This document shows positions 1,721 to 43,882 of a stretch of DNA of 64,000 bases, in pieces. The position numbers were made by a program, and so were the translations under genes. The stretch comes from Chiloscyllium plagiosum. Taxonomy: Eukaryota. The stretch spans positions 9,344,341-9,408,340 of the forward strand of contig NC_057753.1 in NCBI RefSeq assembly GCF_004010195.1. Direction: 5' to 3'. The notes beneath the pieces are model-generated. The model made no database searches. It was not told the origin of the DNA and saw only the letters and a list, made by a program, of their open reading frames with translations. Numbering within the stretch: the stretch's first letter is position 1; every line of letters starts with the position of its first letter.

Positions 1721-2519
1721 TCAATTCTTAAAGCTCATCTTTTTTAACTATGATGTTGCCAGAATGATTTATAGACGGCATAGGCTGGGACTTTTTTTTC
1801 ACTGGAGTGTAAAAGGTTGAGGGTGGAGGTTATGGAGGTTTATGAAGTCATGAGGGACAAAGATAAGTTGAATAATCAGTGTCTTTTCCTGAAGGGGAGG
1901 GGAGTTCAAAGTTTGGGAGTATCTTTTTAAGATGAGAGGGAGAAGATTTAAAAATGATGGAGGGGGTTTTTTACATTGAAGGTGGTTCGTGTGTAGAATG
2001 AACTGTCAGAGGAAGTGGTGGATGCAGGGAATGTTACAATGTTTAATATTATTTGGATAAGTACATATGCAGGTGGGTCTAATTTCCCCCAGATATTCAA
2101 AGGGACAGCCAGTCGGCGGGGGGGGGGGGGGGGGCGAGGCAGGGCCACGTCTATCGTTGTTGTGTGGCATGTGTGACAGCTGCAACAAGACGTCCCAACT
2201 CCTGTGCTCAATGCTCTGACCAATGAAAGCAAGCATGCCAAAAGCCTTCTTCACCATCCTGTCTACACACGACTCCATTTTCTCGGAGCTAATAACCCGC
2301 AACCATAGATCTCCCTCAGTTTTGGTCCCCTTGGTGTTCTGACTTCTGACTTCTTCAACTCTGGATTTGTGTTGAACTTGATGGGATACTTTGTCCAACT
2401 CAGCATGTTTAAACAGTATCGCTCGGAGGGATTCATTTGAAACTTTTCAGGAGGTGAGCTCAACAAGATTGAACTATTCAAAGTTACTTAGATTCTATTT
2501 TAAACTTACATCAGGACCA

Positions 2520-2910
2520 GTAGTCAGAGACACGTACAGCATGGAAACAGACCGTTCGGTCCAACTTGTCCATGCTGACCTGATATCCTAAATTAATCTC
2601 GTCCCATTTGACAGCACCTGACCGATATCCTGTGGCAGCTCATTTCATATATATACCACCCACTGCATGAAGAAGTTGTCATTTAATATATTTTGCCTCT
2701 TACCCTAAACCTCTGCCCTCTAGTTCTGGACTCACCCATCCCAGGGAAAAGACATTGTCTATTACCCTAAGCATGCCCCTCATAATTTTGTAACATCTAT
2801 TAGGTCACTCCTCTGCCTCTGATGATCCAGTGAAAACAGTCCCAGCCTATTCAGCCTCTCCTGTAGCTCAAATCCTTCAAATCCCTGCAACATTCCCGTA
2901 AATCGTTTCT
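2520..2910 (-). mobile_element. CR1/HER1 LINE 3' fragment
   Basis: Reverse complement of the CR1 3' end motifs. Confidence 0.75.
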
Positions 2911-3034
2911 CATAGAGAAGTCAACGTTTCAGTCCTGAAGGAGGATTAATACCCAAAACGCTGACTACTCCACATTCTGGTGCTGCCTGGCTTGCTGTAT
3001 TCTCCCAATCTCCTGCTTGCCTGATTCGGCATGC

Positions 3035-3340
3035 AGTATGTAGTGGCTCAGTGGTTACCACTGCAGCCTCATAGTGCCAGGCGCCCAGGTTTGATTACAG
3101 CCTTGGGTGACTGTATGTGAGGAGTTTGCACTTTCTCCCAGCGTCTACGTTGGTTTTCTCTGGGTGATACTGTTTTCTTCCATAAACCAAAGATGTGCAG
3201 GTCTTGTGGATTGGCCATATTTTCTTGCCCGTAGAGTTATTTACATTAGTCAGAGGATAATTGGTCTGAATGGGATACTCTTCGGAGGGTCGGTGTGGAC
3301 TTGTTGGGACAAATTGCCTGTTTTCACACTAAAGCTAATC
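3035..3340 (+). mobile_element. HE1-like SINE
   Basis: tRNA head 'gtggctcagtggttaccactgcagcctca', core 'gagtttgcac', HER1-type tail. Confidence 0.75.
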
Positions 3341-3803
3341 TCGTCTACGCTACTTTTGTCACTAATGAATGGTAGAATAGACTCGACGGGCCGAATGGCC
3401 TAACTTCTGCTCCGATAGTCTTGCGGTCTCAGGTTTCTCTGGATCATTTCATTTGGCAATGAGCAGACCCGGGCTCATTGAGCAGCACTGTCCACTGAAA
3501 GCAAACCTCATAGGATGGTTCAACTCTGACAATGTGGAAACAGGTCCTTCAGCCCAATACATCCGGACTGATCTTCCGAAGAGTAACCCAGTCAGATCCA
3601 TTTTCCGACCATCCCTAAATTACACACAGACCCCGAAGGGTGGAATTATTACTTGGTTCTTGGTGCCATGAGGCAGAAGTGCAATCCCTGAGCCACCATA
3701 GGGTTGTGGTTGTGGGGTGTAGGGGAGTCATTTGCATTCCAGCAGAAAACAAAAACAGTCCACCTACTCTCCTACTGCACCACTGTCAGGACTGGCAGGT
3801 GGT

Positions 3804-4445
3804 TCAGTCCTGGGGGGTGACCGAAGGCAGCGCGTCACCGGTGGGATCTGATTGCTGGGAGCGTTGGTGCCCCTGCTGGTGCTTCCGCAAGTTGTAGGAA
3901 AGTATGAACCTCTTCCCACACTCGGCCGAGCTGAAGGGCCTTTCCCCGGTGTAGACACACTGGTGCTTCAGCAGGGCGGAGGAATTGCTGAAGGCCTTCC
4001 CGCACTCAGGGCAGCAGAATGGGCTCCTCCCCCCCTCCGCCACCGCCCTCCGCCCCAACCCCCGGGTGGATCAGCTGGTGCTTCAGCAGTGTGGAGGAGC
4101 GAGTAAAGCCCTTCCCACACTCGGGGCAGGAGAACGCTTCTCCCCAGTGTCGAGGGACTAGTGACTCAGCAGGGCTGATGAATTGCTGAAGGCCTTCCTG
4201 CACTTAGGGCAACTGAACGACATCTCCCCGATGTGGACCCACTAGTGGGCCAGCAGGTTGGAAGAAAGAGCAAAGCCCTCCCTGCACTCGGGGCAGAAGA
4301 ACGGCCACTCCTCAGTGTGGACCCACTGGTGTATCAGCAGGTGGGAAAAACTGGTGAAGGCCATCTCGCACTTGGGGCCGGCGAACGGCCTTCCCCGGTG
4401 TGGACCAACTGGTGCGTCAGCAGGGCAGAGGAATCACTGAAGGCT
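3804..4445 (-). pseudogene. C2H2 zinc-finger pseudogene (~6.5 fingers, 5' truncated)
   Basis: [18 protein letters not shown] repeats with in-frame stops, frameshifts and a GC-rich insertion; the 5' end abuts a Penelope fragment. Confidence 0.9.
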
Positions 4446-4760
4446 TAGAGGAAACCTACAACACCATCAACAATATCCTTACTGGCATAAAATTCACAAA
4501 ATAGGAGAACAACAACAAAGTGCCATTTCTAGATGTCACAGTAGAGCGAACAGTCAATGGTAAATTCAAAACAGCGTCTACAGGAAAACATCGCACGCGA
4601 ACCAAGCACTTAACGACAGAAGCAATCACCCCTACACATCCAAACTAACCTGAATCAGGACAGTATTTCAACGGGCCACTCCACACTGCAGCACCCAAGA
4701 ACGACGAAGATCAATAAATAACTGTACAGCGCATTTGAGGAGAACGGGCAACCTACAAAC
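4446..4760 (+). mobile_element. Penelope-like reverse transcriptase fragment
   Basis: Degenerate IKFT..PFLDVTVER..SVYRK..HP motif of PLE RT; same family as 25140-25860 and 25880-26165. Confidence 0.75.
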
Positions 4761-4774
4761 CCTCTGAAAATTGC

Positions 4775-4846
4775 TTCCCTGACCCGGAATCGAACCCGGG
4801 CCGCGGCGGTGAAAGCGCCAAACCCTAACCACTAGACCACCAGGGA
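4775..4846 (-). tRNA. tRNA-Glu(TTC), near-intact
   Basis: TCCCTGGTGGTCTAGTGGTTAGGGTTTGGCGCTTTCACCGCCGCGGCCCGGGTTCGATTCCGGGTCAGGGAA; 72 nt, A and B boxes, T4 terminator just downstream; one G:G mismatch in the T-stem. Confidence 0.8.
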
Positions 4847-4883
4847 GATGCGATTAAATGCTGACAGCTGAACTGAAAATTTC

Positions 4884-4915
4884 TTCCCTGCCCAGAAATC
4901 GAATTCTGGCCACAG
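4884..4915 (-). pseudogene. tRNA-Glu 3' half relic
   Basis: GGCCAGAATTCGATTTCTGGGCAGGGAA plus an AATTTTCAG trailer like the full gene; 5' half replaced by a Penelope sequence. Confidence 0.55.
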
Positions 4916-4927
4916 GGGTAAGAAGGC

Positions 4928-5552
4928 TTTCACCTGTGCATCCAACAATGTCATTTCTTGTATTCATTGCTCCCGATATGGTCCCCTCTACATTGGGGGG
5001 ACTGGAGACTCCTCGCAGAGTCAAGTCACAGCGCTTGAGGGAACATCTCCAGGACACCCGCAACAATCAACCCCATCGCCCTCTGGAACAACATTTCAAC
5101 CCCCCCTCCCACTCTGCCGAGGACATGCAGGTCCTGGGCCTCCTCCATCGCCGCTCTCTCCCCACCCGATGCCTGGAGGATGAACGCCTCATCTTCCGCC
5201 TCAGATAAATTCAACCCCAGGACATCAATGTGGACTTCACCAGTTTCCTCATTTCCCCTCCCCCACCTTACCTCAGTTCCAACCTTCCACCTCAGCGCTG
5301 TCCTCATGACCTGTCCTACCTGCCAATCTCCCTTCCCACCGATCCGCTCCACCCTCCTCTCTGATCTGTCACCTCCATCCCCACCCCCATTCACCTATTG
5401 TTCTCTTTGCTACTTTCGGCCCAGCAACCCCCAATTTATCTCTCTACCCTGGAGGCGTGCTGCCATTATTCCTGATGAAGGGCTTTTGCCCGAAACGTCG
5501 ATTTTCCTGCTTCTCGGAAGCTGTCTGACCTGCTGTGCTTTTCCAGCACCAA
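4928..5552 (+). mobile_element. Penelope-like element 3' part (GIY-YIG remnant + terminal repeat)
   Basis: CIHCSR..LYIG / EHL..TR..QHFN..SHS..DM.VLGL..RLIFRL motifs followed by a hammerhead-bearing terminus. Confidence 0.85.
5468..5501 (+). ncRNA. Minimal type-I hammerhead ribozyme motif
   Basis: CTGATGA (5472-5478), stem II GGGC/GCCC, GAAA (5492-5495), palindromic ACGT helix III, UC cleavage site, short helix I TC/GA. Confidence 0.65.
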
Positions 5553-5559
5553 TCAGTCT

Positions 5560-5790
5560 GCTGATTTCTCATCAACAAATTGACACAAGCAGACAAAACG
5601 TGTGCATAAACCCTAGCCACAATACATTACATTAAAGACATCTGTGAAATGATGTCCAGACAACTCAATCCTCTCAGCATCATGGTAGCCCACAAACCTA
5701 CCAACACACTTGAACAGCGGTTAATAAACCTGAAATACCCGATACAAACAACCAGCAAACGAATGTTAATTACAAAATACCACGCAAGGA
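5560..5790 (+). mobile_element. Penelope-like element fragment
   Basis: YIKDICEMMSRQL..I.VAHKPTNTL linker motif of PLE ORFs. Confidence 0.6.
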
Positions 5791-6722
5791 AATATATACA
5801 TGAACTCTGCCGCACAGTTCTCTGTGGCAAGAAATGTTGGAATGAGATAAAGAAGATTTTTTCAGCCAAAACGAATCGGCACTGACTGGACAGCCATTTA
5901 AAATCAACGCTGTCAGCCCAGGATGGAAGATCCGCAGGGATGAACAGTTTTCTTATTTCTTGAAGATTTACAAAGCTGAGACTGGGTTTTGGTGTTTGTT
6001 CCCTTTCCACTCCCAGCAGCCGCAGTGGTTGGGGCGGTGAGTTGGGGAAAGTGAAATGTGCTCACGAGCAGCGTGTGGGGCTATTTCAGCTTCCCCTCCT
6101 CTGACAGCGCTGTGACGGGACTCTGATGTTCTCAGGGACACTTACTGACGCGAGGCAGTGAAAAGAGTCTCGTCCCTGCAAATCAGGAATTCAAACTGAC
6201 TTCAGGACAATGAGAAAGAATAATTGGGGTGTGTGAAGAAGCTGCGAGCTGCATTTCAAACAGGTAGGTGGAGTCAGATGCGTCATCCATTGCGCCTCGG
6301 CACTCGGCGGACCTGACGCCGCCATGTTGCCGATTTCTGACGTTAACACGGACATGCACAGCAATGGGAATATTCACAAGGTGAACAGCCAAAGATAATC
6401 ACCGTCACTGCGTCCCTTCCATAGTCCCAACTTTGTGAAGCAGTATCTTTCACTGGCAAATAAAACACCTTTGTCCTCAGGTGCCTGCTTCATTTCGATC
6501 ACGACTTCACGCCCCTCACTGTTCAAGTCTCATTTCCAAACACTTGGCTCATCGCCTCAAAAGCAGCTCTGTGGGTATCTGCTTGTTCCGCCCTGACAGG
6601 CAGTGGGTGGCAGATTCCCGACCAGTCCCAATGTGATTGAAATATTTCAACCCCTCCACTGATTTGCATTTTTTAAAAAACCGTGGAGCAATCTCCCTTT
6701 CCTTTTGACGACAGTTCTCAAC

Positions 6723-6805
6723 TGCAGTCGGCAGGGTTCACACCTGCGTGGGGAAACCGCAATGGATTTCACGTCCATCGCATTAACCACTCGGCCCACC
6801 AATAC
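6723..6805 (-). pseudogene. tRNA-Ser(TGA) pseudogene
   Basis: Aligns to the vertebrate Ser-TGA sequence (GGCCGAGTGGTTAA..GATGGAC.TGAAATCCATT, long variable arm); T-loop mutated to GGTGTGAACC. Confidence 0.8.
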
Positions 6806-7299
6806 AGAACCACACTGACAGCTTCATTTCCCAGGTCTCTCTGCCTGTGGAGCTGAGAAAGAGTGAATCATTGCAGAGTTTGTTTGAATCAATCACTTCA
6901 TAGGTTTCGAAAGGGTTAAATATCTTCAAATGGCGAGTCTGCGTGTTTCATCCCGAAAGATGAAATGGGCGTGCAGTTAAAAACAAAAACAAAAATTGCA
7001 GGAGCAACTCAGCAGGTCAGGCAGCATCTGTGGAAAGATAATCAGAGACAACATTTCAGAACTCTTTTTTTTCCTCATCCAGGTACAGCCAAACCTGCTG
7101 AGTTTCTCCAGCAGTTTGTCTTTCTGTCTCGGATTCTCAGCATCCGCAGTCCTTTACGTTAGAAATTAAGTCAATTCAGAAACCCCACTGAGCTTCCTCA
7201 GTGGAGAAGAATTCCGTTTGGGAAACATTTTCCTGACACCATTAAAAACGCGCACCTTCGCAGCCAAGAAAGCAGTCGGAGCGAGAACAGCAAACACTC

Positions 7300-7373
7300 T
7301 GGCCCTGGGTGGTCTTGAACCACCAACCTCTCAATTAACAGCCGAATGCGTTGACCAATTGCGCTACAGAGAC
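7300..7373 (-). pseudogene. tRNA-Asn(GTT), degenerate
   Basis: GTCTCTGTAGCGCAATTGGTCAACGCATTCGGCTGTTAATTGAGAGGTTGGTGGTTCAAGACCACCCAGGGCCA; many CpG-type transitions. Confidence 0.8.
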
Positions 7374-8934
7374 AGGTCCACGTGACGCCCGCACAGTGTC
7401 TTTGAGGAAGCTACTATTCAATTCATAATTCAACCTGCCCCGCCCAAAATTACTTGGCTTCTATCAGTTTTACCTTTCCATAATTATGCCTTGGACATTC
7501 ATTGTGGAGACATGGGAACAGTCTGATCCCAAAACTTGCAGGCACATCCATGTCACGAGGACCTAGTCTTCCTACACCGGGGCCATCGCCCTCCGAGCCT
7601 TTCAGTGTTTTGCCTCTTACCGAATTTTCTCATTGTCTCCGAGCTGAGAAGGGGTTTGAATTCCTGATGCGCAGAGCATTCTTTCAATATCTCAGATCAG
7701 TTCATGTCCCGAGAATATCAGAGTCAAACTCCCGGCCTCTTAAACAAGGGGACAATGTCTGGACTGTCTCTGCTCAGTCGGACAGTTCATCCTTCATTGT
7801 CCTCTAATTCCACTTCCCAAAGAGTTTCTAAAGATTCACAAAGCTGGAGACTGGAATTTCTCTTTTACTTCTGAACATTTTTCCACCTGCTAACTGACAA
7901 TATTTTGCCAAAACCTCTTCCCAATGGTAACACTTGTATCATGTCCAGCGAGGAGGAATTTCCATTTTGTGGAGACATTCCCAAATTTGGGAATGTTCTC
8001 TTTGGAGCAAAGAAGGTTAACTGGAGATTTCCAGGGGCTGTTGGCAATGATGGGAGAAGTGGTGGGAATGGGCAGGTTAATGATCAGAAGTACCTATTGC
8101 CTCTGTTTAGGGTCAGTTACCAGAGGACAGGGATTGAAGTTCTTTAATGGAAAGCAGCATTTGTGTAGAACAAACACAGCGAATACTGCAGAAAGCCGAC
8201 GGGTCGAGCTGCATCTGTGGAAAGGTAAACAGAGCCGACGTTTTGAGTGTGCTACGGTTTTTGTTCAGAACTCAGTGTTTTGCCTCTTCCCGAAGTTGGT
8301 CCAGGTCTGTGTCTCAATTGGCAAACACATGGCAAGTGCAGTGCCGTAATGTGAAGTTATAGCCTTTGCTGTTTAAAAAAAAGCAGTGCATTGTTTAAAT
8401 GGTGATATATTGGAATGTGGAGAAAGTGAGGACTCGAGGTGAAGATCGAAAAATGTGGCACTGGAAAAGCACATCAGGTCAGGCAGCATCTGTGGAGCAG
8501 GACAGTGAACGTTTCGGGCACAAGCCCTTCAACAGGAATGATGTATGGATGTACAAAGGGGTCTCAGAGTGCCTCTACACCAGTCAATGCCAGTTGTCGG
8601 GCAGATGCAGCATGCAATGAGCGAGGCAAGTGGTATATTACGAAGAGGAATTGAGTTCAGAAGTGGGGTCATTGAACATATTCAAGGCGAAGTTCACCTG
8701 AGTTTTGAACAACAAAGAAGTGGATGGTTGTGGGGGGAGGTAAGAAAATGGTTTTAAGACCAGTACAGGTCAGTCACAGAGTCAGACAGCACTGAACAGA
8801 CCCTTCATCCAACTAGTCCATGCTGAGTATGTTCTCAAACTAAACTCGTCCCACCTACCAGTGTTTGGCCCATAAACCTTCGAACCTTTCGTATTCATGC
8901 ACTTATCCAAATGTCTTTTAAACATCGGAGCTGT

Positions 8935-16129: not shown

Positions 16130-17300
16130 AACGGTGAGCTTGAATTTTATAAACGGTGTCAGTAAAATCCAGTAGTGGACACTGATTTGGTTCAGTCGAT
16201 TTTTTTGCCAAGCGCAATTCACCGAGAGGATGCTGCTGTGTGAAACAGCGTGGGGAATTACTGCAGGGCCTCCTGCACATGGGACACACCGCAACTGATG
16301 TATTTCACCTTCACCAGTTTATTCTTATCTCGGAGAAGAGAGGTTTGATGATTCGGATCATAGCAGCCAGACAGAGAACAGGAGAAGAGCACTCAGACTT
16401 TCAAAAGCTTGTCACCACAGCTGGGTCATCGTGGCCCGTGTATCAGTATGGGATAGTAATCTGCATCTACCATTGCTGTGATGGAGTATCCTGTTGGGCA
16501 GAATATATCCGTTGTTAGATTTTCCACGTTCTGTTAGTCCAACTCCGATTTCACTCAGAATCACAAAATGTGTGACAGCGCAGACTGAGGCCATGCAGCC
16601 CACCTTAGCTCTGCTGGCTCAACACAATATGTAAATAAGTGTCTCATTCTGTCGCCTTCTCCCTCTAAGTCTGCACATTGTTACATTGAACATGCCCACC
16701 CGAATTCCCTTTTGTGTCCATTGAATCTGTCTCTTTGTCACTGTCAGGCAGTGACTTACTGATCCCACTCCCTGTGCGATAACGGTCTTCCTAATGTCAC
16801 TTTTACTTATTTTCGTGATGACTTTCAATCTCTGCCAAATCGTTCTCGATCCTTTCAGGCCTGGGAGCATTTTCACAGCATTATTTCCTCTGTTTAAAAC
16901 CCTCCTGACGTGGAAAACTTCAATCAGGTCAGCTCTCAGCCTTCTGTTCACCAAAGACAACTGCCCCAACTTTCCAATCTACCTTCATGACTGACATTCC
17001 TCATACACGGTACCATTCTCTTCAACCTGTTCAGCGCTGTCTGCAATCACTTCACTTCCCCACTTCTTGAAGTGTCACACTCAGAGTGCAATACAGGTGG
17101 AGGATTCATTCAGACTCGGATTGCGCGGGCGAAAAATCTGCAATACTTGTTTTCACTTTGAGCAAGTGTTTTCCTTCGCCGTGTTCTCTGAAATGACACC
17201 TCTGTCCCATTCCTAATTCAGGCAGTCCGATCTGATTTAACGAAGCGTCTTTTTGAGAAAACTGACCCGGCATTTTTGCTCAGGTCAATTTAAGAAATGA

Positions 17301-17390
17301 GGGTTCGCCTGGGATTGAAACCCGGCACCTCCCACACGTCTGTATAAGCTAGAAAACCCAAAGCTAGCATCATACTCAGACCAACGAGCC
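17301..17390 (-). pseudogene. tRNA-Pro(TGG) pseudogene with 20-nt intron-like insert at 37/38
   Basis: GGCTCGTTGGTCT..GTATGATGCTAGCTTTGGG[TTTTCTAGCTTATACAGACG]TGTGGGAGGTGCCGGGTTTCAATCCCAGGCGAACCC; insert at 17337-17356. Confidence 0.8.
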
Positions 17391-18198
17391 AAAAACCACG
17401 TGTGCGCCCAGCTCCTGAAGCAACTGGGAGTTGTTCAGTACGAAATACATTGTACATTGCTCCCAGAATTACAAGCAGCAAAGACTTTCAAGAACATCTG
17501 CTTCTCATTCTGTCTCCCTGCTCCCAGGACGCTGCTGTTTGTCCCGTCCCCAGGAACCGGGCTTTCTTCACTTGTGGATAACTGAAACATTTCGTTTCTA
17601 CTTACAAGCTGTGCTGGTGGAAGGCAGAGCCCAATCGCTCTTCTGCTCTCTCTCTCACTATTACGTGAGGCAGGAGAAGTCAGTTACAGTCATGCGTAGG
17701 AAATGGACAACTTTGAACTTGTTCCAAAGGTCCTGTTAATGGAGAGATCGAACGATGCTGTGCTGCCGGGACAGAGAGAAATGGACACCGAGACTCTTCC
17801 CTCAGGTAAATTGATATGAGTGCATTTTTGTGCACCCTTCTTGGTGTTCAGAATTTGTCTTGACACAGCAATCCTGCAGAGAGTCTTTTCTTACACGGGC
17901 ATTGATTTCTTTACTGCAGGAATGGACCAAACCAGCAAATCAGGTGTTACAACTTCACCGGTTCATTGCCATCTGAGAGAAGAGGTTTAAAACTTGAGAT
18001 CAGAACACACCGACAGAAAACTGGACCAGACAACTCAGAGCTCCACAAGTGTGCCTGCGCAACTGTATAAATTTGACTTGTGTATCGATGTGACATATTT
18101 AACTCAGAAACCCGAAGTTTTGGGAAGCAGATGACAAGGCAAGGAACAGAACAGAGCGCCGTTAGACGGGAAAGCTGTTATAGACGACATTGAGTGAA

Positions 18199-18261: not shown

Positions 18262-19605
18262 GCATTGCACAGCAGGTTTTCCAGAGAAGTATTCAGCTTT
18301 TCATCTGGCGTGTGACTTGCATGTTGGAGAATGGCGTCAAAAGATCTTCACTGCTGTAGTGTCATGTGCTGTTGTGCAGACATATCCGCAAATATAAACT
18401 CAGAGAGTAATGTACATTGGAGACTCTGAGCCAGCTGAACTTGATCAGTGTGAAATACATTCCACATTGCTCCAAGAATTGCAAGCAGCAGTTTCCAGAA
18501 CATCTGCTTGTCATTCTGTCCCCGGGGCGCTGATGTTTGCCTCATCCCCAGGAACTGGACTCTCTCCACTGGCGGATAATTAAACCAATTTGTTCCTACT
18601 TAGAAGCAGTTCATGGGGTTGAGGGCGCGGGGTGAGTTCATTCGCTCTTCTGCTCTCTCTCTCAATCCCTTGGGGTGAGAGGTATCAGTTACACTAATGC
18701 GTGGGAAGTGAGCAACTTTGATTGTGAACTTTCTCCAAAGGTCTGTTATCGGAGAGATAGAAAGATGCTGTGCTGGCGGATCAGAGAGAAATGGACACCG
18801 AAGACTCTTCCCTCAGGTAAATTCATATGAATACATTGTTGTACAGCCTGCTTGGTGTTCAGAATTCCTCACATGCAGCAATCTTACAGAAATCTATTGC
18901 AAAGTGGGCATCGGTTTCCTTGCTGCGACCGCGCAGCAGTTAACATCTGAGCTCCAAGTGTCCCAGATGAAGAGAATCCGAGTGAAACCTTCACTCACTG
19001 AGAGTCATCCCCACGGCCCTGAGCTGTGGGACTGCAGGCAGTCCAACACAGAAGGGACGGTTAAAAATGAACGTTGTTTCTCCCTCAGTCTGTCTGCCCC
19101 AGAGACAGGCAGTGGGACGGCATAAACGCGTAGCATCATTCTCCCGCCGACAGAGGCGGTTCAGCCCATCGAGTCACGGCGACTGTCTGTCACTTGTCTC
19201 TCTCTCTCTGAGGTTATTCACAATCGGTGATATCTGTCTTAATAGTAAGGGACTGTATCTGAATGGTGATACAGTTTCTGACATGCTGATCGTCTTGTCA
19301 TTCACATCCGAACCGGCGTGACGAATTACTGCAGGGAATGGATGAAACCGCAAGGCATGTGTTTCAACGTTATCAGCTCATTGGCATCTCAGAGAAGTGG
19401 TTTTGCGAATCAGTTCATAGGAAACCGACGAAGAACAGGAGAAGACCACTCAGACCTCCAAAAAGCATGTTACTTGAACCGTGTAAGGTTCACGAGTGTA
19501 TCGGTATGATACAGGGCATTCAGACACTCAGGAAGTAGGTGCAAAGGCAAGATACAGAACAGAGAACAGCTACAAAAGGAGGCTGTTCAAGGAGACATCG
19601 AGCAA

Positions 19606-19662
19606 CAGCAGAGGATGGCTTCGATCCATCGACCTCGGCGTTATGGGCCCAGCACGCTCCCG
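19606..19662 (-). pseudogene. tRNA-iMet(CAT), 5' truncated
   Basis: CGGGAGCGTGCTGGGCCCATAACGCCGAGGTCGATGGATCGAAGCCATCCTCTGCTG, with the initiator-diagnostic GATCG T-loop. Confidence 0.85.
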
Positions 19663-20422
19663 TTATCCACAGGTCCCTTCAGCCGTTCGTCTGGCATGTG
19701 GCATGCACGTTCGAGACTGATGTCAAAGATCTCCACTGATGTCGTGTAATATGCTGTTGCGCAGACATATGGAGGCTGTGTAAATATAAACTTTTTTCTC
19801 ACTTCCCACATTCTGTTGGTCGAACTGTGATTTCATTCTGAGTCACAGCATGTGTCACATCACAGACGGAAGCCATGCGGCCCACCTTTGCTCTGCTGGT
19901 TCGACACAGGAAGGAAACGTGTTTCTCTATTCATATCATTCGCTTGTCTTCTCCGTGTATTTCTGCATATTGTTACTTTAAACATGACCACCGAATTCCC
20001 CGATGCGTCTATTGAATCTGCCTCTTTGTCAATGTCAGATAGGGATTTGCTGACCCTAACATACCCTTCCTCATGTCACTTTTAGATCTGTTCCTCATGA
20101 CTTTAAAACTCTGCCGAATCATTGCCGATCCTTTCAGGCGTGGGAGCATTTTAACTGCATTACTTTCTCTGTCTGGACCCCGCATGACTCAGAAAGCTTC
20201 AGTCAGGCCAGATTTCGAACTTCTGTTCTCCGAGGAGAGCTGTCCTAATTTTTCAATCTACCCTCATCGCTGACATTCCTTAAATACGGCACCACTGGCG
20301 TCAACTCAATATTCCATCATTTCACTTCCTTGCTTTCTGCTCAATTTGTACTCCAAGCCTGGTTTAGCGAAGGTGCTTTTTGAGAAAACTAACCGGGCAC
20401 TCCTGCACAAACCAGGAAACGC

Positions 20423-20505
20423 GGGCTCGCGCCGAGATTCGAGCTCTTGCAAGCCTGCGCAGTCGAAGACCCAAAGCGAGAATCATACCCAGAGACCAAC
20501 ACCGA
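20423..20505 (-). pseudogene. tRNA-Pro(TGG) pseudogene with 18-nt intron-like insert at 37/38
   Basis: GTTGGTCTCTGGGTATGATTCTCGCTTTGGG[TCTTCGACTGCGCAGGCT]TGCAAGAG..CTCGAATCTCGGCGCGAGCCC; insert at 20452-20469; T-stem deletion. Confidence 0.8.
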
Positions 20506-20933
20506 CACCACGCACGGGCACCCACTCTACCTCTTCAACCAGCTGAGTCTTGCTCAGTGTGAAATACATTTGACATTGCTGTGAGAATTCCAAGCGGCAA
20601 AGAGTTTCCAAAACAGCTGCTTCTTATTCTGTCTCCCTGCTGCTGTTTGTCCCGGGACGTCTCTACTGGCAGAGAGTTGAACCATTTTGTTTCTAAACGT
20701 TTCTCTAACACCGGAGTGACCAGTGATAAGCATTGCCCTCCTCAACACAGGATTCAGAGAACAACAGAAGACCACTCAGACCTCCACTAGGGTGTTATCT
20801 CAACTGTGCACATTGGGCCAGTAAATCAATGTGAAATATTTATGTCGAAGATATTTGGGAAAGAGATGAGAAGGCGAGGTGCAGAACAGTGCGCTGTTAT
20901 ACGGGAAAGCTGCTAAAGACGACATTGACTGAA

Positions 20934-22160: not shown

Positions 22161-23043
22161 GGCAGCAAAGACAGCAATGTGGACTGGTATCCCTGAGCCA
22201 ACTGTTTGTCCCATCTACAGGAACCGGGTTCTCTCCATTGGCGGATAATTAAACCATTTTGCTGTTGCGCTGACATGAGGAGATTGTGTAAATATAAACT
22301 TTTCTGAATTCCCACCTTCCATTGGTCGAACTGTGAGTTCACTCTGAATCACAACACGTGTCACAGCGCATTTGGAGGCCCATCTCAGCTCTGTTGGTTC
22401 TACACAGCAAGTAAATGAGAGTCTCTATGCATATCATTCTCTTGCCTTCTCCCTGTAAATCTCCACATTGTTATTTTGAACATGACCACCGAATTCCCTT
22501 TTGTGTTCGTGAATCTGCCTCTTTGTCACGGTCAGACAGGGATTTACGTATCCGAACCACTCCCTGTGCGAAAATGTTCTTCCTAATGTCAGTTTTACTT
22601 TCTTTCCAAATGCCTTGAAATCTCTGCCATTTTTGGGGAAATTGAAAGGATTATCATTCCTGCACATGAGGCTGAATTGATTTAATTTCTAACGTAAAGG
22701 ACTGCGGATGCTGAGAATCCGAGACAGAAAGAGGAACTGCTGGAGAAACTCAGCAGGTTTGGCAGTACCTGTGGGAGAAAACAGAGTTCTGATATATTGT
22801 CTCTGATTCTCTTTCCACAGATGCTGCCTGACCTGCTGAGTTGCTCCTGCAATTTCTGTTTTTGCTTTTAACTGAAAGTTCATTTCATCTTTCGGAATGA
22901 ACCACCCAGACTCTCCACTTGCAGATATTTAACCCTTTCGAAACCTGTGAAGTGATTGGATTCAAACAAACCCAGCAATAATTCACTCTTTCTCAGCTCC
23001 ACAGGCAGAGAGACCTGGGAAATGAAGCTGTCAATGTGGTTCT

Positions 23044-23126
23044 TTATTCGTGGGCCGAGTGGTTAATGCCACAAACTTGAAATCCATTGCAGTTTCCCCA
23101 TGCAGGTGTGAACCCTGCTGACTACA
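23044..23126 (+). pseudogene. tRNA-Ser(TGA) pseudogene
   Basis: Paralog of 6723-6805; same GGTGTGAACC T-loop lesion; anticodon loop CTTGAAA. Confidence 0.75.
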
Positions 23127-24289
23127 AAATGAGACATGTCGTCAAAAAGAAAGGGAGACTGTTCCCCGGTTTCGTCTTTAAGATTCAAATCAGTGGAGGG
23201 TGAAAGATATTTCACTCACATTGGGACTGGTCGGGAATCTGAAACTCACTGCCTGTCAGGGTGGTACAAGCAGATACCCACAGAGCTGCTTTTGAGGCAA
23301 TCAGTCAAATATTTGGAAATGAGACTAGAACAGTGAGGGGCGTGAAGTCGTGATCGAAATGAAGCAGGCACCTGAGGATTAATTTTATTTGCCAGTGAAA
23401 GATACTGCTTCACAAAGTCGGAACTATGGAAGGGAAGCAGTGACGATGATTATCTTTGGCTGTTCACCTTGTGAATGTTCCCATTGTTGCGCATGTCCGT
23501 GTTAACGTCAGAATTCTGCAGCATGGCGGCGTCAGGTACGCACAGGGCCGGGGCACAATGGCTGACGCATCTGACTCCAGCTATCTGTTTGAAATGCAGC
23601 TCACAGCTTCTTCAAACAGCCCAATTAATCTGTCTCAATGTCCTGAAGCCGGTTTGAATTCTTGATCTGCAGGAACGAGTCTCTTTTCACTGTTTCGGAT
23701 CAGTAAATGTCCCTGAGAACATCAGAGACAAGTCACGGCGCTGTCAGAGGAGGGGAAGCTGAAATAGCCCCACATGCTGGGCACATTTCACTTTCCCCAA
23801 CTCACCGCCCCAACCACTGCGGCTCCTGGGAGTGGAAAGGGAACAAACACCAAAACCCAATCTCATATTTGTGAATCTTCCGAAAATAAGAAAACTGCTC
23901 ATCCTGGGCTGACAGGGGTGATTGTAAATGGCTGTCCAGTCAGTGTCGATTCTTTTTGGCTGAAAATATCTTCCTTATCTCATCCCAGCATTTCTTCCCA
24001 CAGAGAACTGTGCGGCAGAGTTCATGTATATATTTCCTTGGATGGTATTTTGTAAATAATATTCTTTTCTGCTTGTTTTATATCGGGATTTCAGGTTCAT
24101 TAGCGGCTGTTCAAGTGCGTTGGTAGGTTTGTGGGCCACCATGATGCTGAGAGGTTTGAGTTGAGTGGACATCATTTACCAGATGTATTTAATATAATGT
24201 AATGTGGCTACGGTTTCTCCACACGTTGTTTCTGCTTGTGTCAATTTGTTGATGAGAAATCGGCAGATTGGTTTATTGAGTCGGCAAAA

Positions 24290-24933
24290 GTGAGGACTGG
24301 AGATGCTGGAAGCCAGAGTTTAGATCAGAGTGGTGCTGGAAAAGCACAACAGGTCATGCAGCTTCCGAGGAGCAGGAAAATCGACGTTTCGGGCAAAAGC
24401 CCTTCATCAGGAATAGAGGGAGGACGCCTCCAGAGTGGAGAGATAAATTCGGGGTGGGGGGTGTGCTGGGGCGAAGGTAGCAAAGAGTAAAATAGGTGAA
24501 TGGTGGTGGGGATGGAGGCGACAGGTCAGAGAGGAGGGTTTACTGGATAGGTGGGAAGGGAGATTGGCAAGTAGGACAGGTCATGAGGTCAGTGCTGAGC
24601 TAGAAGGTTGGAACTGAGGTAAGGTGGGGGGAGGGGAAATGAGGAAACTGGTGAAGTCCACATTGATGCCCTGGGGTTGATGTGTTCCGAGGTGGAAGAT
24701 GAGGTGTTCTTCCTTCAGGCGTCTGGTGGGGAGGGAGTGGCGGTGAAGGATCCCCACGACCGACATGTCCTCGGCAGAGTGGGAGGTGGGGTTGAAATGT
24801 TGGGGCATAGGGCGATGGGGTTGATTGGTGCGGGTGTCCAGGAGATGTGACTTGACTCTCCAGTCTCCCCAATGTTGTAGAGATCGCATCGGGAGCAATA
24901 GATACAAAAAAATTACATTGGTGGATGTACAGG
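24290..24933 (-). mobile_element. Penelope-like element 3' part with hammerhead terminus
   Basis: Paralog of 4928-5552. Confidence 0.85.
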
Positions 24934-24941
24934 TCTAACGA

Positions 24942-24973
24942 CCGCGGCCTGGATTCGATTCCCGGGCAGCGAA
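24942..24973 (+). pseudogene. tRNA-Glu 3' half relic
   Basis: CCGCGGCCTGGATTCGATTCCCGGGCAGCGAA + GCAATTTTCAG. Confidence 0.6.
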
Positions 24974-25010
24974 GCAATTTTCAGTAGAGCTACGTAGCTG
25001 CATCCATATC

Positions 25011-25082
25011 TCCCTGGTTGTGTAGTGGTTAAGATTCGGCGCTCTCATTGCCGCGGCCCGGCTTCGATTCCCGGTCAGGGAA
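25011..25082 (+). tRNA. tRNA-Glu(CTC), probably pseudogene
   Basis: TCCCTGGTTGTGTAGTGGTTAAGATTCGGCGCTCTCATTGCCGCGGCCCGGCTTCGATTCCCGGTCAGGGAA; G53>C in the B box and D-stem changes. Confidence 0.75.
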
Positions 25083-25099
25083 GCAATTTTCAGCGCGTC

Positions 25100-25870
25100 T
25101 ATTGGCTAACCATTCTTCTTAAATGCGCTGTACATCTATTTATTGATCTTCATAGTTCCTGGGTGCTCCAGCGTGCAGTGGATCGTTGAAATAGTGTCCT
25201 GATTCAGAGTTGTTTGTATGTGGAGGGATGATTGCTTCTGTAGTGAAGTTCTTGGTTCGCGTGCGTTGTTTTCCTGAAGAGGCTGTTTTGAATTTACCAT
25301 TGACTGTTCGCTCTACTGTGACATCGAGAAATGGCACTTTGTTGTTGTTCTCCTCTTTAGTGAATTTTATGCCAGTAAGGATATTGTTGATGGTGTTATA
25401 GGTTTCCTCTAATTTGTTTCATTTTGTGGAAGAGTTGTTGTTCGAGTCTCAGCATTATTGCTTCTGCTAGGATTTCTGAAACTGGTGGTTTCATGGGTGT
25501 TCCTTTGATTTGTTTGTTAGTCTTGATACTGAATATGAAGTGGCTGGTAAAGCACAGCTCCACGAGCTTGACAGTATTATCTTTGCTGATGAAGTTGCTG
25601 CTGTTTGGTGTTTGTGTCTTTGGTTCTTCTAGTAGTGTCTTCAGTTTTCTTTGGCCACGTTGATGTTAATGGATGTGAACAGGGCTGTATGTCAAAGGAC
25701 AGCATTATTCCATCCTCTTCTACCTTGGTGTCTTTGGTGTTCAAGGATTCTTGGATGAAGTAACTGGAGTGGCATGAATCTTCGATTTGGTGTTTTAGTC
25801 TTCAGTAGAGGCCTTTGACTAGTCTGTATTTGGTGTTCCAAGTAGTGAGACTATGGCCTGAGGGGGGCTC
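25100..25870 (-). mobile_element. Penelope-like RT fragment
   Basis: SFDI..LFTSIN, GTPM.PP.S..LAEA.M, PFLDV motifs. Confidence 0.8.
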
Positions 25871-25879
25871 CTGGTTTGA

Positions 25880-26165
25880 AGAAGAGGAGAACAGCAGCAA
25901 AATGCCATTCCTTGATGTCACAGTAGAGCGAACAGTCAATGGGAGAACTTCAAACTAGCATCTACAGAAAAACAACACACACAAACCAAATACTTAACCA
26001 CAGAAGCAATCATTCCAAAACCCACAAACGAAGCTGCATCAGGACATTACTTCAACGAGCCACTACACACTGCAGCACAGAGAAACTACGAAGAACAGAA
26101 GAGAAAGACGTATATAGTGTATTTAAGGAGAACGGGTACCCAATAAACCCAGTCCGCCGATTTCA
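25880..26165 (+). mobile_element. Penelope-like RT thumb fragment
   Basis: PFLDVTVER..TSIYRKTTHT..NH..THKRSCIRTL..NGYP. Confidence 0.8.
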
Positions 26166-26395
26166 AATTGATGCTTCCAAGCTGACTCTCACAAATTCGG
26201 TTTGACCTTCCATTCTTTCCTATTTTATTTTGTTGGTTTTGAAAACTTTCCCAATCCTCTGAGTGAGTGTTGGAGTTGGGAAGTTATGTTGTGGCTGTAC
26301 AGGACATTAGAATATTGTGTAATACTGTTGGAATATTGTGTGCAATTCTGGTCTCCCTCCTATCAGAAGGATATTGTGAAATTTGAAAGGGTTCT

Positions 26396-26893
26396 GAAGC
26401 ACCAATGGGTCCACAGAGGGGAGAGGCCCTTCTGCTGCCCTGAGTGCGGGAAGGCCTTTAGTGATTCCTCTGCCCTGCTGACGCACCAGTTGGTCGACAC
26501 TGGGGAGAAGCCGTTCTTCTGCCCCGAGTGCAGGAAGGGATTTGCTCTTTCCTCTGACCCGCTGGCCCACTGGTGGGTCCACATGGGGGAGAGGTCGATC
26601 AGTTGCCCTACGTGAAGGAAGGCTTTCAGCAATTCCTCAGACCTGCTGAGCCACAAATCCGTCCACACTGGGGAGAAGCCATTTTCCTGCCCCGAGTGCG
26701 GGAAGGGCTTTACTCGCTCCTCCGCCCTGCTGAAGCACCAGTGTGTCCACAGCGGGGAGAGGCCCTTCAGCAGGCCCGAGTGTGTGAAGAGGTTCATGTT
26801 TTCCTGCAACTTGTGGAAGCACCAGCGGGGGCACCAACGCTCCCAGCAATCAGATCCCACCGGTGTTCTGCCTTGGGTCACCCCATGGACTGA
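26396..26893 (+). pseudogene. C2H2 zinc-finger pseudogene (~5.5 fingers)
   Basis: Paralog of 3804-4445; Cys>stop, frameshift, 5' end replaced by CR1. Confidence 0.9.
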
Positions 26894-28262
26894 ACCTCCT
26901 GCCAGTTCTGACAGTGGGTGCAGTGGGAGAGTAATTGGGCTGTTTTTGTTTTCTGCTGGACTGCAATTGCCTCCACCCCCCTCCCCCCCCCCACAACCAC
27001 AACCTCATGGTGGCTCAGGGGCGTCATGGTGACTCAGTGCTTAGCACTGTTGCCTCATGTCATCAGGAACCCAGGATCAATTCCACCCTTGGGGATCTGT
27101 GTGCAATTTGTGGAGGGTAGGAAAATGGATGTGACTGGGTTACTCTTCGGAGGATAAGTACAGATGTGTTGGGCTGAAGGACCCGTTTACACACTGTAGG
27201 AGTTCTACGATCCTATGAGCTTTGCTTTGAGTGGACACTGCTGCTCATTGAGCCCGGGACTGCACATTGGCAATGAAATGATCTAGAGAAACCTAAGACC
27301 GCAAGACCGTCGGAGCAGAAGTTATGCCATTCGGCCTGTCGAGTCTACTCTTCCATTCGTTCGAGTCAAAAAAATTGCAGATGAGATTAGCTACAGTGTG
27401 GAAACAGGCCATTTGTCCCAATAAGTCCACACCGACCCTTTGAAGAGTAACACACCCAGACCCATTTCCCTCTGACTAATGCACCTAACTCTATGGGCAA
27501 TTAAGCATGGCTAATCCACATGACTTTCACATCTTTGGACAGGACCACCCAGAGAAAACCCACGCAGACACTGGGAGAATGTGCAAACTCCTCACAGACA
27601 GTCACCCAAGGCTGGAATCAAACCTGGGTCCCTGGTACTGTGAGGCTGCAGGGGTAACCACTGATCCACTACATATTGCAACCCGAAGTAGGCAAGCAAG
27701 AGGTTGGGAGAATACAGCAAGCCAGGCAGCACCAGAATGTTGAGTAGTCAACGTTTTGGGTATTTACCGTTCTTCAGGACTGAAACGTTGACTTCTCTAT
27801 GAGAAACGATTTACAGAATGTTGCTGGGGGTTGGAGGGTTTGCGCTACAGGGAGAGGCTGAATAGGCTGGGGCTGTTTTCACTGGAGCATCGGAGGCAGA
27901 GGAGTGACCTAATAGAGGTTAAAAATTCATGAGAGGTATGGACAGGGTAATAGACAAGGTCTTTTCCCTGGGATGGGGGAGTCCAGAACTAGAGGGCATA
28001 GGTTTAGGATGAGAGGCGAAATATATTAAAGGGACAACTTCTTCATACCGAGGGTGGTACATATATGAAATGGGCTGCCACAGGATATGGGTCAGGTGGT
28101 GTCAAATGGGACGAGATTAATTTAGGATTTCAGGTCAGCATGGAAAAGTTGGACAGAAGGGTCTGTTTCCGTGCTGTATGTTTCTCTGACTACTGGTCCT
28201 GATGTCAGTTTAAAATAGAGTCCAAGTAAATTTGAAGAGTTCAATCTTGTTGAGCTCACCTC

Positions 28263-38299: not shown

Positions 38300-40228
38300 A
38301 CTTAGGAGGCAACAATTATAATATGGTAGAGTTCAGTGTGCAGTTTGAAAGAGAGAAGGCAAAATTGGTGTTACAGTTAAATAAAGGTAATTGCAAGGGC
38401 AATGAGAGAGGAACAGAAAAAGATTTATTGGAAGTAGAGCCTAGTGGGGAAGACAGAGTAACAACAGCAGGAATTTCTGGGTGTAATTGAGGACACAGTA
38501 TAGAGGTTCATCCCAAAAAAAAGAAAGATTACCTGGGTGGGGGGAGGGTGGGGAGGGGGCAAATTAGACAACCATGGCTGACAAAGGAAATATATTGAAG
38601 GCAAAGAGACAGCCTATGAAGTGGCCAAGAGTACTGGGAAATCAGAAGATTGGGATGACTACAAAAACAAACAGAGGATGACAAAGAGAGAAAGAAGGAA
38701 AGAGAGGATCAAATATGAAGGTAAGTGAGCCAGTAATATTAGAAATGATAGTAAAAGTTTCTTTCAATACATAAGAAACAAACGAGAGGTAGAAGTAGAA
38801 ATTGGGCTGCTCCAAATTGATGCTGGAAGGCTAGTGATGGGAGATAAGGAAATAGCTGAAGAACTTAATAAGTACTTTGTGTCAGTCTTCACAGTGGAAG
38901 ACATGAGTAATATCCCAACAATTAAGGAGAGTCAGGGGGTAGCTATTACAAAGGCGCAAGTGTGAGAAAAGCTAAAAAATCTAAAAATTGATAAATCTCC
39001 TGGCCCTGATGAGCTACATCCTAGAGTTCTGAGGGAGGTGACTGAGGAAATAGCGGAAGCATTGATTGTGATCTTTAAAAAATCACTGGAGTCAGGGAAA
39101 GTTCCAAATGATTGGAAGATCGCTGTTGTAACCCTCTTGTTTGAGAAAGGATCAAGACAAAAGATGGAAAATTATAGGCCGATTAGCCTAACCAGAAGGC
39201 AGAGAGTTGGGATAAAAGGTTCTTTTTCAGAATGGCAGCTGGTGACAAGTGGTGTCCCGCAGGGCTCAGTGTTGGGGCCGCAGCTGTTCACTTTAGATGT
39301 TCATGATCTGGATAAAGGGACTGGGGGCATTCCCGCGAAGTTCGCTGATGATACAAAGTTAGGTGGACAGGCAGGTAGTTCTGAGGAGGTGGGGAGGCTG
39401 CAAAAAGATTGGGACAGTTTAGGAGAGTGGTCCAGGAAATAGCTGATGAAATTCAATGTAAGCAAGTGCAAGGTCTTGCACTTTGGAAAAAAGAATACAG
39501 GCATGGACTATTTTCTAAACAGTGAGAAAATTCATAAAGCCAAAGTACAAAGGGATCTGGGAAACTAGTCTAAAGGTTGACTTGCAGGTTGAGTCAGTGG
39601 TTAAGAAAGCAATGTAATGTTGTCATTTATGTCAAGAGGGTTGGAATGTAAAAGCAGCGATGTGCTACTGAGACTTTATAAAGCTCTGGTTAGGCCCCAT
39701 TTAGAATACTGTGTCCAATTTTGGACTCCACACCTGAGGAAGGACATAGTGGCACTGGAGCGTGTCCAGCGGAGATTCACACGATGATTTCTGGTATCGT
39801 AGGCCTAACATACAATGAACGGCTGAGGATCCTGGAATTATATTCATTAGAGTTTAGAAGGTTGAGGGGAGATCTATTAGAAACTTACATGATAGTGCAT
39901 GACTTAGAAAGGGTGGACGCTGGTAAGTTTTTCCATTAGGCAGGGAGACTAGGACCCAAAGGCACAGCCTGTTAATTAGGGGGGTCAATTTAGAATGCAA
40001 GTGACGAGACATTTCTTCAGACAGAGAGTGGTGGGCCTGTGGAATTCATTGCCATGTAGTGCAGTGGAGACCGGGACATTAAATGTCTTCAAGGCAGAGA
40101 TTGATAAATTCTTGGTATTGCAAGGAATTAAGAGCTATGGGGAGAGTATAGGTAAGCGGCGTTGAAATGATTAAATGGCGGAATGGACTTATGGCCTTAC
40201 TTCCACTCCTATGTCTTATGGTCTTATG
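38300..40228 (+). mobile_element. CR1 LINE ORF2 (internally deleted)
   Basis: KSPGPD.LHPRVL, NYRPISLT fused directly to RRQRV, VPQGSVLGP, KFADDTK, and tail tatgtcttatggtcttatg. Confidence 0.9.
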
Positions 40229-42676: not shown

Positions 42677-43594
42677 ACTTCATTGTAATGTCTTCTGCTC
42701 TGAGTAAGGGCAAAACATCTTTGAAAGCTGCTCTGAAACTCCAGTTTTCACAACCACAATTCTGCTTTCACTTAAGTCGATTGAAGTCATATAGCACTGA
42801 AACAGACCCTTTGGCCCAACTCGTCCATGTCAACCAGATATCATAAATTCATCTAGTCCCATTTGCCAACATTTGACTCGTATCCCTCTAAACCTTTCCT
42901 ATTCAAATACCCATCCAGATGGCTTTTAAATGTTGTCATTGTACCAGTCTCCACCTCTTCCTCTGGCAGTTTGGTCCACACATACACTACCCTTTGCGTG
43001 AAAAATCTTTGTTCAAAAATCAGATGAACTCAGCCTTCAATATATTCAATGACCCCCTAACTGCAGGAAGACATCACCACTTCTGAACTCAATTCCTCTT
43101 GCTCATATACCACTTGCCTTGCTGATTGCTTGCTGCACCTGTCTGACAACTGGCAGCGACTGAGGCTCCTTTGTCCATCCACACATTATTCCTGATAAAG
43201 GGCTCATGCCCGAAACATCGACTCTCCTGCTCCTTGGAAGCTGCCTGACCTAATGTGCTTTCCCGGTGCCACACTTACTCTGATCTCCAGCATCTGCAGT
43301 TCTCACTTTCGCCACATCCCGAATACATCACCATTTAAACAATACACCTGCTTTCTGCTTTTTATTAGCAAAGGCTGTAACTTCATATTGTGGTACTGCA
43401 TTTGCCATGTGTATGCCAACTGCGGTCTTCTCTACATCAGGGAGACTGAGCGTAAGCTTGGGGAACAGTTCGCCAAGCATCGCAGCCGGGTCACCATCCA
43501 TTTTAATTCCCCTTCCCACTCCCTTTCTGACATGACCATCTTAGGCCTCCTCCATTGCCACAATGAACCAAACCGCAAATTGGAGGAACAACAC

Positions 43595-43882
43595 TTAGTG
43601 GGAGGTACGGTGGCACAGTGGTTAGCACTGCTGCCTCACAGCACCAGAGACCCGGATTCAATTCCCGCCTCAGGCGACTGTGTGGAGTTTGCACATTGTT
43701 TGCGTGGGTGTGCTCCGGTTTCCTCCGACAATCCAAAAATGTACAGGTTAGGTGAATTGGCCATGCTAAATTGCCCGTAGTGTTAGGTGAAGGGGTAAAT
43801 GTGGTCAGGGTGGTATAAGCTTCGGTGGGTCGGTGTGGACTTGTTGGGCCGAAGGGCCTGTTTCCACACTGTAAGTAATCTA
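43595..43882 (+). mobile_element. HE1 SINE
   Basis: Well-preserved head GGTGGCACAGTGGTTAGCACTGCTGCCTCACAGC and tail AAGGGCCTGTTTCCACACTGTAAGTAATCTAA; AACAC repeated at both flanks. Confidence 0.9.

Follow-up and report, generated by a model that had tools for sequence, protein, structure and literature searches.

A decayed tRNA-Pro(TGG) copy and the probable family of canonical-site introns in proline tRNA genes to which it belongs

The window analyzed here, a single stretch of 64,000 nucleotides, holds a decayed tRNA-Pro(TGG) copy interrupted by a short insert close to its anticodon. This locus raises the question of whether the insert is an accident that befell one pseudogene, or the remains of an intron of the kind removed by TSEN, in an isotype that is not among the four intron-bearing tRNA families of humans. 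To answer it, we examined the flagged copy and its neighborhood, the related genes elsewhere in the same genome, and the features expected of a spliced precursor.

The flagged copy and its surroundings

Alignment of the flagged element to an intact gene fixed the boundaries of its insert one base past the TGG anticodon, exactly where the first-pass annotation had put them (Table 1). The insert is a longer version of an 18-nt form found in related genes, and both ends are common to the two forms. It carries A at intron position -3, and its bases -3 to -6 are still able to pair with U32-G35. The gene around it is in poorer condition, with 11 substitutions in the exons in addition to the 2-nt D-loop deletion, and with one mismatched pair in each of the acceptor, anticodon and T stems; it does not have the intact boxes (A and B) and stems of a functional tRNA-Pro gene. 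The first 9 nt of its trailer are those of two solo copies, one intron-bearing (L081) and one intronless (L130), discussed below.

Table 1. Positions of the features discussed in the text; coordinates are those of the window unless a locus is named.
Feature	Position	Strand	Remarks
Decayed tRNA-Pro(TGG) pseudogene with 20-nt insert	17301-17390	minus	By alignment to intact gene
5' exon (exon 1), tRNA positions 1-37	17357-17390	minus	2-nt D-loop (A-box) deletion
Intron-type insert, 20 nt, at 37/38	17337-17356	minus	The family's 18-nt intron plus 2 nt
3' exon (exon 2)	17301-17336	minus	T-loop (B-box) and stem changes
3' trailer	17290-17300	minus	T-rich
Second decayed tRNA-Pro(TGG)	20423-20505	minus	T-arm deletion; 18-nt intron at 20452-20469
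Duplicated cassette	19201-20578	minus	Intron-bearing Pro gene, spacer, Met-CAT-like gene
Met-CAT-like tRNA remnant	19607-19662	minus	3' of the Pro gene in the cassette
Solo Pro-AGG pair (L084, L085)	C23:37324570-37327830; L117:3043-3132 and 6270-6359		3.1 kb apart around an N run

The paralog in the same window can be aligned with the flagged copy, flanks included, and this alignment bears out the earlier report of a homologous 18-nt insert at the same position. The paralog's insert has 5 differences from the intron of an intact gene (L032), and its exons carry 9 substitutions and 11 gap positions, which include most of one T-arm strand. Neither copy was called by ARAGORN (default) or by Rfam RF00005, whose calls within the window were a Glu, an Asn and a second Glu gene only; a low-threshold ARAGORN run returned 91 calls, mostly spurious, which we disregarded. 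Given the substitutions, deletions and broken stem pairs in both copies, the first-pass annotation was right to class them as pseudogenes, and we conclude that the flagged element is a dead member of a family of proline tRNA genes with a genuine intron at the canonical site.

The cassette that contains the paralog is 77% identical over 1.4 kb to two loci (L031 and L035) that hold intact intron-bearing Pro-TGG genes, which indicates that the array copies multiply by duplication of DNA and fall into decay later. The window belongs to a tRNA cluster in decay. Its upstream and spacer blocks show ∼75% identity between neighboring tRNA cassettes (17431-17917 with 18441-18926; 16521-17026 with 19803-20305). 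The Glu-TTC, Asn-GTT and Glu-CTC tRNAs (4775-4846, 7299-7374 and 25011-25082) have stem mismatches, and the two Glu genes sit in inverted duplicated blocks (2451-7179 and 22672-28262) that are 81-88% identical. The window also contains GIY-YIG-like (possibly Penelope-type) and weak reverse-transcriptase (RVT_1) remnants, at 43199-43777 and 38966-39439, with 1 of 8 ORF frames matched.

Intron-bearing proline tRNA genes elsewhere in the genome

Searching the genome with exact patterns that span the anticodon arm identified 66 proline tRNA genes with an insert (30 TGG, 21 CGG and 15 AGG) and 7 without (3 TGG, 3 AGG and 1 CGG). These numbers are minimum values, because exact patterns miss decayed copies like the flagged one, and they may include redundant small unplaced contigs. 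The insert was 18 nt long in 64 of the 66 matches, and 11 and 13 nt in the remaining two, while reversed-pattern controls gave no match anywhere in the genome. DNA searches returned at least 40 matches to the flagged copy (40 scored of 62 candidates) and at least 41 to a better copy (40 scored of 211 candidates). Parsing of the retrieved loci gave 105 distinct copies, with introns of 18 nt in 67 and 20 nt in 20, no intron in 11, and other arrangements in 7.

When the 65 parsed 18-nt copies with a Pro anticodon were compared with the intronless C18 gene, 27 had no more than 2 exon changes and 38 had more than 2, although ungapped mismatch counts inflate the decay of copies with indels. In five of the 65, all TGG (L030, L032, L034, L035 and L039), the exons were identical at 72 of 72 positions, so that an intact body is present at the level of the family, and cutting out the insert at 37/38 restores the 72-nt intronless gene exactly. 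L039 lies on the 58-Mb contig C23. The five copies contain 3 distinct introns; three of them have one intron in common, and may be recent or lie on redundant contigs. Four of the five are followed directly by only three Ts, and their first T4 comes at +35. The first-pass annotation had proposed that this lineage has or had an intron-containing Pro-TGG family, and had staked the proposal on the existence of an intact intron-bearing Pro-TGG gene. The five places, where intact exons are combined with an 18-nt insert at 37/38, uphold it for TGG, but its restriction to this anticodon was too narrow, as AGG and CGG genes have the same kind of insert.

ARAGORN, when allowed introns, reported L032, L034, L035 and L118 as Pro(tgg) i(37,18). 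In many other copies (L031, L036, L037, L040 and others) it placed the intron at 34 rather than 37 and assigned the labels Val, Leu or Ile, and such placements and labels can hide the family from annotation.

We also asked whether these loci belong to the genome. At least half of the sampled words of L032:380-700 were present in 10 of 24 listed runs, all from one organism and from 3 studies, and the locus is probably native. With its 3.56 Gb, at least 44 large contigs, dense tRNA clusters and type of SINE, this animal genome is consistent with a cartilaginous fish. Runs of two other organisms held 0.13-0.17 of the words, which we did not count as evidence. Six RNA rows with unrelated labels held 0.07-0.10 of the words, and 2 raw single-cell polyA runs of the organism with the positive runs were also listed; neither is taken as evidence of expression. 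Contamination was ruled out for the family, since its copies lie on many chromosome-scale contigs. An anticodon switch from another intron-bearing isotype was rejected as well, because the body is that of the intronless Pro genes of the same genome and the anticodons are TGG, AGG and CGG; by body and anticodon, the copies do not belong to the Tyr-GUA, Ile-UAU, Arg-UCU or Leu-CAA families.

Two variants were seen among the retrieved loci. An intronless Pro-TGG gene (L070:2550-2621) has a compensatory base-pair swap in its anticodon stem, and the subfamily nearest the flagged copy (L004-L006, L008, L009 and L023) carries a 15-nt slippage duplication in the anticodon arm, which gives rise to apparent inserts of 35-37 nt.

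Intron divergence, splice-site geometry and possible fossil transcripts

In nine representative copies, exons differed at 0-4 of 71 sites overall and at 1-4 between lineages, whereas introns of different lineages differed at 9-17 of 18. Over the 63 copies with 12 or fewer changes, the mean pairwise difference was 0.097 for exons and 0.443 for introns, and there are at least seven intron lineages of equal length, with up to 17 differences in 18 sites. One TGG copy (L030) and one AGG copy (L085) differ at 1 of 71 exon sites and 14 of 18 intron sites, and their flanks are 44-46% alike (random, 52 ± 6). The solo AGG pair, L084 and L085, lacks the array flank and combines unrelated 18-nt introns (13 of 18 sites differ) with near-perfect exons (1 of 71). 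Its flanks are 28-64% alike to those of other copies, compared to 52 ± 6% for random 50-mers, and a T-run starts no more than 4 nt from the gene end, as in intronless genes. These two genes are the best candidates for old functional orthologs. Exons that stay unchanged while introns become saturated suggest that mature tRNA was being made from intron-bearing genes, which needs splicing; a less simple alternative would be that intronless genes converted both exons.

The AGG lineage found in arrays (L097-L100, L104 and L083) has strong T-runs and exons that are near-perfect apart from position 18. This position is normally an invariant G in tRNA, and every retrieved member of the lineage has C there; although this is just one change, the lineage could be defective. 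The strongest candidates for functional genes are L030, L032, L034, L035, L039, L085 and L084.

The geometry expected of a TSEN substrate is known from human work. The sole feature conserved among introns of human tRNAs is a pair between pyrimidine 32 and a purine at intron position -3 (the A-I pair), required for 3' cleavage (PMC8479045), a 3-nt bulge accompanies an anticodon-intron helix of 4 bp in human pre-tRNA-Arg on TSEN, and eukaryotic tRNA introns are 6-133 nt long (PMC10539383). The proline inserts, at 18 nt in the family and 20 nt in the window copy, fall within this range and lie exactly between nucleotides 37 and 38. A purine was present at -3 in all 21 distinct introns of near-intact copies and at -4 in all 21 as well; by comparison, position -2 had a purine in 10 of them and position -1 in 7. 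Because more decayed copies mostly keep the purine (28 of 32 at -3; 30 of 32 at -4), part of this signal reflects shared ancestry. The intron base at -5, which faces the wobble base, was A in 53 of 59 TGG copies and G in 8 of 13 CGG copies, related copies being non-independent. Of 11 AGG copies, 2 had T at this position and 7 had C, which does not pair.

Of 10 near-intact TGG arms, 9 had a minimum free energy (MFE) fold with the 4-bp helix and a 3-nt 3' bulge. The same was true of only 1 of 9 AGG arms (one more had a 4-nt bulge) and 2 of 6 CGG arms, and the U32 pair was absent from the MFE fold in 7 of 9 AGG arms. Shuffle tests on six lineage representatives, which are of shared ancestry, gave individual P values from 0.014 to 0.295. 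As modeled, then, the anticodon-intron helix with its 3-nt bulge appears to be present in TGG precursors and is weak in those of AGG and CGG. A search for TSEN genes with Pfam PF01974 found no match among 5 genome candidates, an uninformative result, as genes are matched exon by exon.

Several solo copies may be fossils of transcripts. One (L047) starts at +1, keeps its intron, continues into a trailer of ∼18 nt, and is enclosed by a target-site duplication of 12-14 bp. It was the only 1 of 23 copies tested with such a duplication directly flanking the gene, and a wider search among tRNA-SINE-type copies found 0 of 9. The array upstream sequence is absent from 12 of 15 copies on chromosome-scale contigs. 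In five copies (L061, L081, L082, L120 and L121), the T-rich trailer runs into a common repeat of ∼300 nt with a tRNA-like head. We read these as putative precursor-SINE chimeras, by a mechanism like that of U6-L1 chimeras, or, alternatively, as products of tRNA-targeted insertion of the repeat behind existing Pro genes. These five and L130 (C4, C14, C12, C19 and C2) vary in anticodon, intron and junction, with the same SINE-like repeat after the trailer.

A search for the intronless junction with A45 gave 12 matches, comprising 8 intronless copies with G45, 2 intron-bearing copies, and 2 intronless copies with A45; overall, A45 is found in 35 of 56 18-nt copies and in 0 of 8 intronless genes. 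In L130 the intron is precisely absent, yet the copy carries A45, shares its 4-nt leader with L081, and has a 9-nt trailer also present unchanged in 7 intron-bearing copies, the window copy among them. After this trailer comes what reads as the SINE-like repeat of the five copies above. Each of the 10 other intronless copies is 3 or more changes away from L130. The simplest reading is that L130 is a candidate for a spliced precursor that was copied into DNA. A second copy (L129) is intronless with A45 and has a canonical-type trailer, which makes A45 a weaker marker of the intron lineage. L047 and L130 suggest that the family was transcribed and spliced in the past, with the evidence for splicing coming from one copy, L130, and bearing on the past only rather than on present activity.

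These observations can be set against three other explanations. The insert could be a chance insertion or a local duplication in a single pseudogene, and slippage duplications by the anticodon did occur in the related L004-L009 subfamily, creating apparent 35-nt inserts; however, intact genes carry a homologous insert, as do 66 matches to exact patterns across the genome, which refutes this explanation, and we give it practically no weight. The copies could instead belong to a tRNA-derived repeat, SINE-like or a satellite unit, in which an insert fixed in the founder was amplified but never spliced. Their high number in duplicated cassettes, and the fusion of several solo copies to a SINE-like repeat, are what such a repeat would produce. 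It would not be expected to yield seven or more intron lineages of one length that differ at up to 17 of 18 sites between conserved exons, nor pairing with the anticodon that tracks the wobble base, nor a copy (L130) that is precisely intronless with the flanks of the intron lineage, and we consider it very improbable.

The third explanation, improbable but the strongest of the three, accepts the introns as genuine and regards the whole family as a relic, once spliced and now silent or unspliced, with proline decoded by intronless genes alone. Decay of most copies, loss of G18 in the AGG array lineage, weak terminators on 4 of the 5 perfect TGG copies, the presence of 7 intact intronless genes, and retrocopies that record only the past are all consistent with it. 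It has more difficulty with the five TGG places whose exons match at 72 of 72 positions, and with L084 and L085, which keep near-perfect exons and T-run terminators between saturated introns and flanks, a state that is hard to explain without recent selection.

We therefore favor a canonical-site intron family in proline tRNA genes that is likely spliced by TSEN, a reading that the genomic sequence makes highly probable; the intact intron-bearing Pro copies elsewhere in the genome are likely to be spliced. Such copies would be transcribed by Pol III from internal A and B boxes. In the precursor, the 4-bp anticodon-intron helix would arise from pairing of U32-U33-N34-G35 with bases -3 to -6 of the intron, and a 3-nt bulge would remain at the 3' splice site, whereupon TSEN would cut both sites and RTCB would join the exons. 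The TGG product would be letter for letter the tRNA of three intronless genes. The arrays would turn over by birth and death, and this turnover would account for the decay of most copies, including both in the window. All three anticodons are represented among the seven intact intronless genes, so that splicing would not be needed for viability.

Comparison with known systems

A broader proposal, which we advance tentatively and hold somewhat short of even confidence, is that a fifth, undescribed family of spliced tRNAs exists in one lineage of vertebrates, probably sharks. It would cover all three Pro anticodons, its 18-nt intron would be old enough for saturation and co-vary with the wobble base, and it would stand beside intronless genes of identical mature sequence; a spliced retrocopy with precursor flanks would mark an RNA route of intron loss. 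If true, a vertebrate would have been found midway through gaining or losing a tRNA intron. The family bears on the open question of how introns are gained and lost by eukaryotic tRNA genes, and it would allow gain in cartilaginous fish to be tested phylogenetically against loss in mammals. Intron-bearing and intronless Pro-TGG genes with identical exons also form a matched pair for intron function, including intron-dependent modification, stage-specific supply and circular intron RNAs, and the family adds natural candidate TSEN substrates with a U:A anticodon-intron pair. Its significance is tempered by the textbook nature of the mechanism and by the fact that the flagged copy is dead.

The splicing mechanism is thus familiar, and it is the isotype that is new for vertebrates, as far as the literature was searched: no vertebrate intron-bearing tRNA-Pro family was described in the titles and abstract beginnings searched, and the portions consulted of PMC10485636, PMC8450103 and PMC4033280 added no vertebrate list of intron-bearing tRNAs. 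These genes may already be among existing raw tRNAscan predictions. The Squalomix preprint (10.1101/2025.06.08.657570) reports, in its main text, abundant clustered tRNA loci in sharks with many intron-containing predictions, a signal of which the Pro family is probably part, but that main text names no isotype ("proline" occurs 0 times) and contains no analysis of intron structure or splicing. According to section 18 of PMC4090602, the genes of one isodecoder usually either all carry an intron or all lack one, and where they are mixed, their origins differ; the identical exons of intron-bearing and intronless Pro-TGG genes contradict the latter statement as it is given in that section.

[quoted passage not shown] The Pro family resembles these four in its short intron at 37/38, its pyrimidine 32 opposite a purine at -3, introns that vary within the family, and, as predicted chiefly for TGG, an anticodon-intron helix with a 3-nt 3' bulge. 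It differs from them in isotype, which is proline with all three anticodons, in that intron-bearing and intronless TGG genes give an identical mature sequence, and in the ratio of intron-bearing to intronless copies, 66 to 7, with most of the former decayed. The A-I pair is U:A or U:G here, in contrast to C:G in the solved human Arg substrate. The nearest counterpart by isoacceptor is the tRNA-Pro(UGG) family of budding yeast, where such introns had been called typical, correctly according to PMC13079951, which gives 10 genes with introns of 30-33 nt; the intron is present in every family member (PMC10275265). The Pro genes described here and those of yeast have in common the isoacceptor and a canonical-site intron, but the introns described here are 18 nt long, occur in a mixture with intronless genes, and extend to AGG and CGG.
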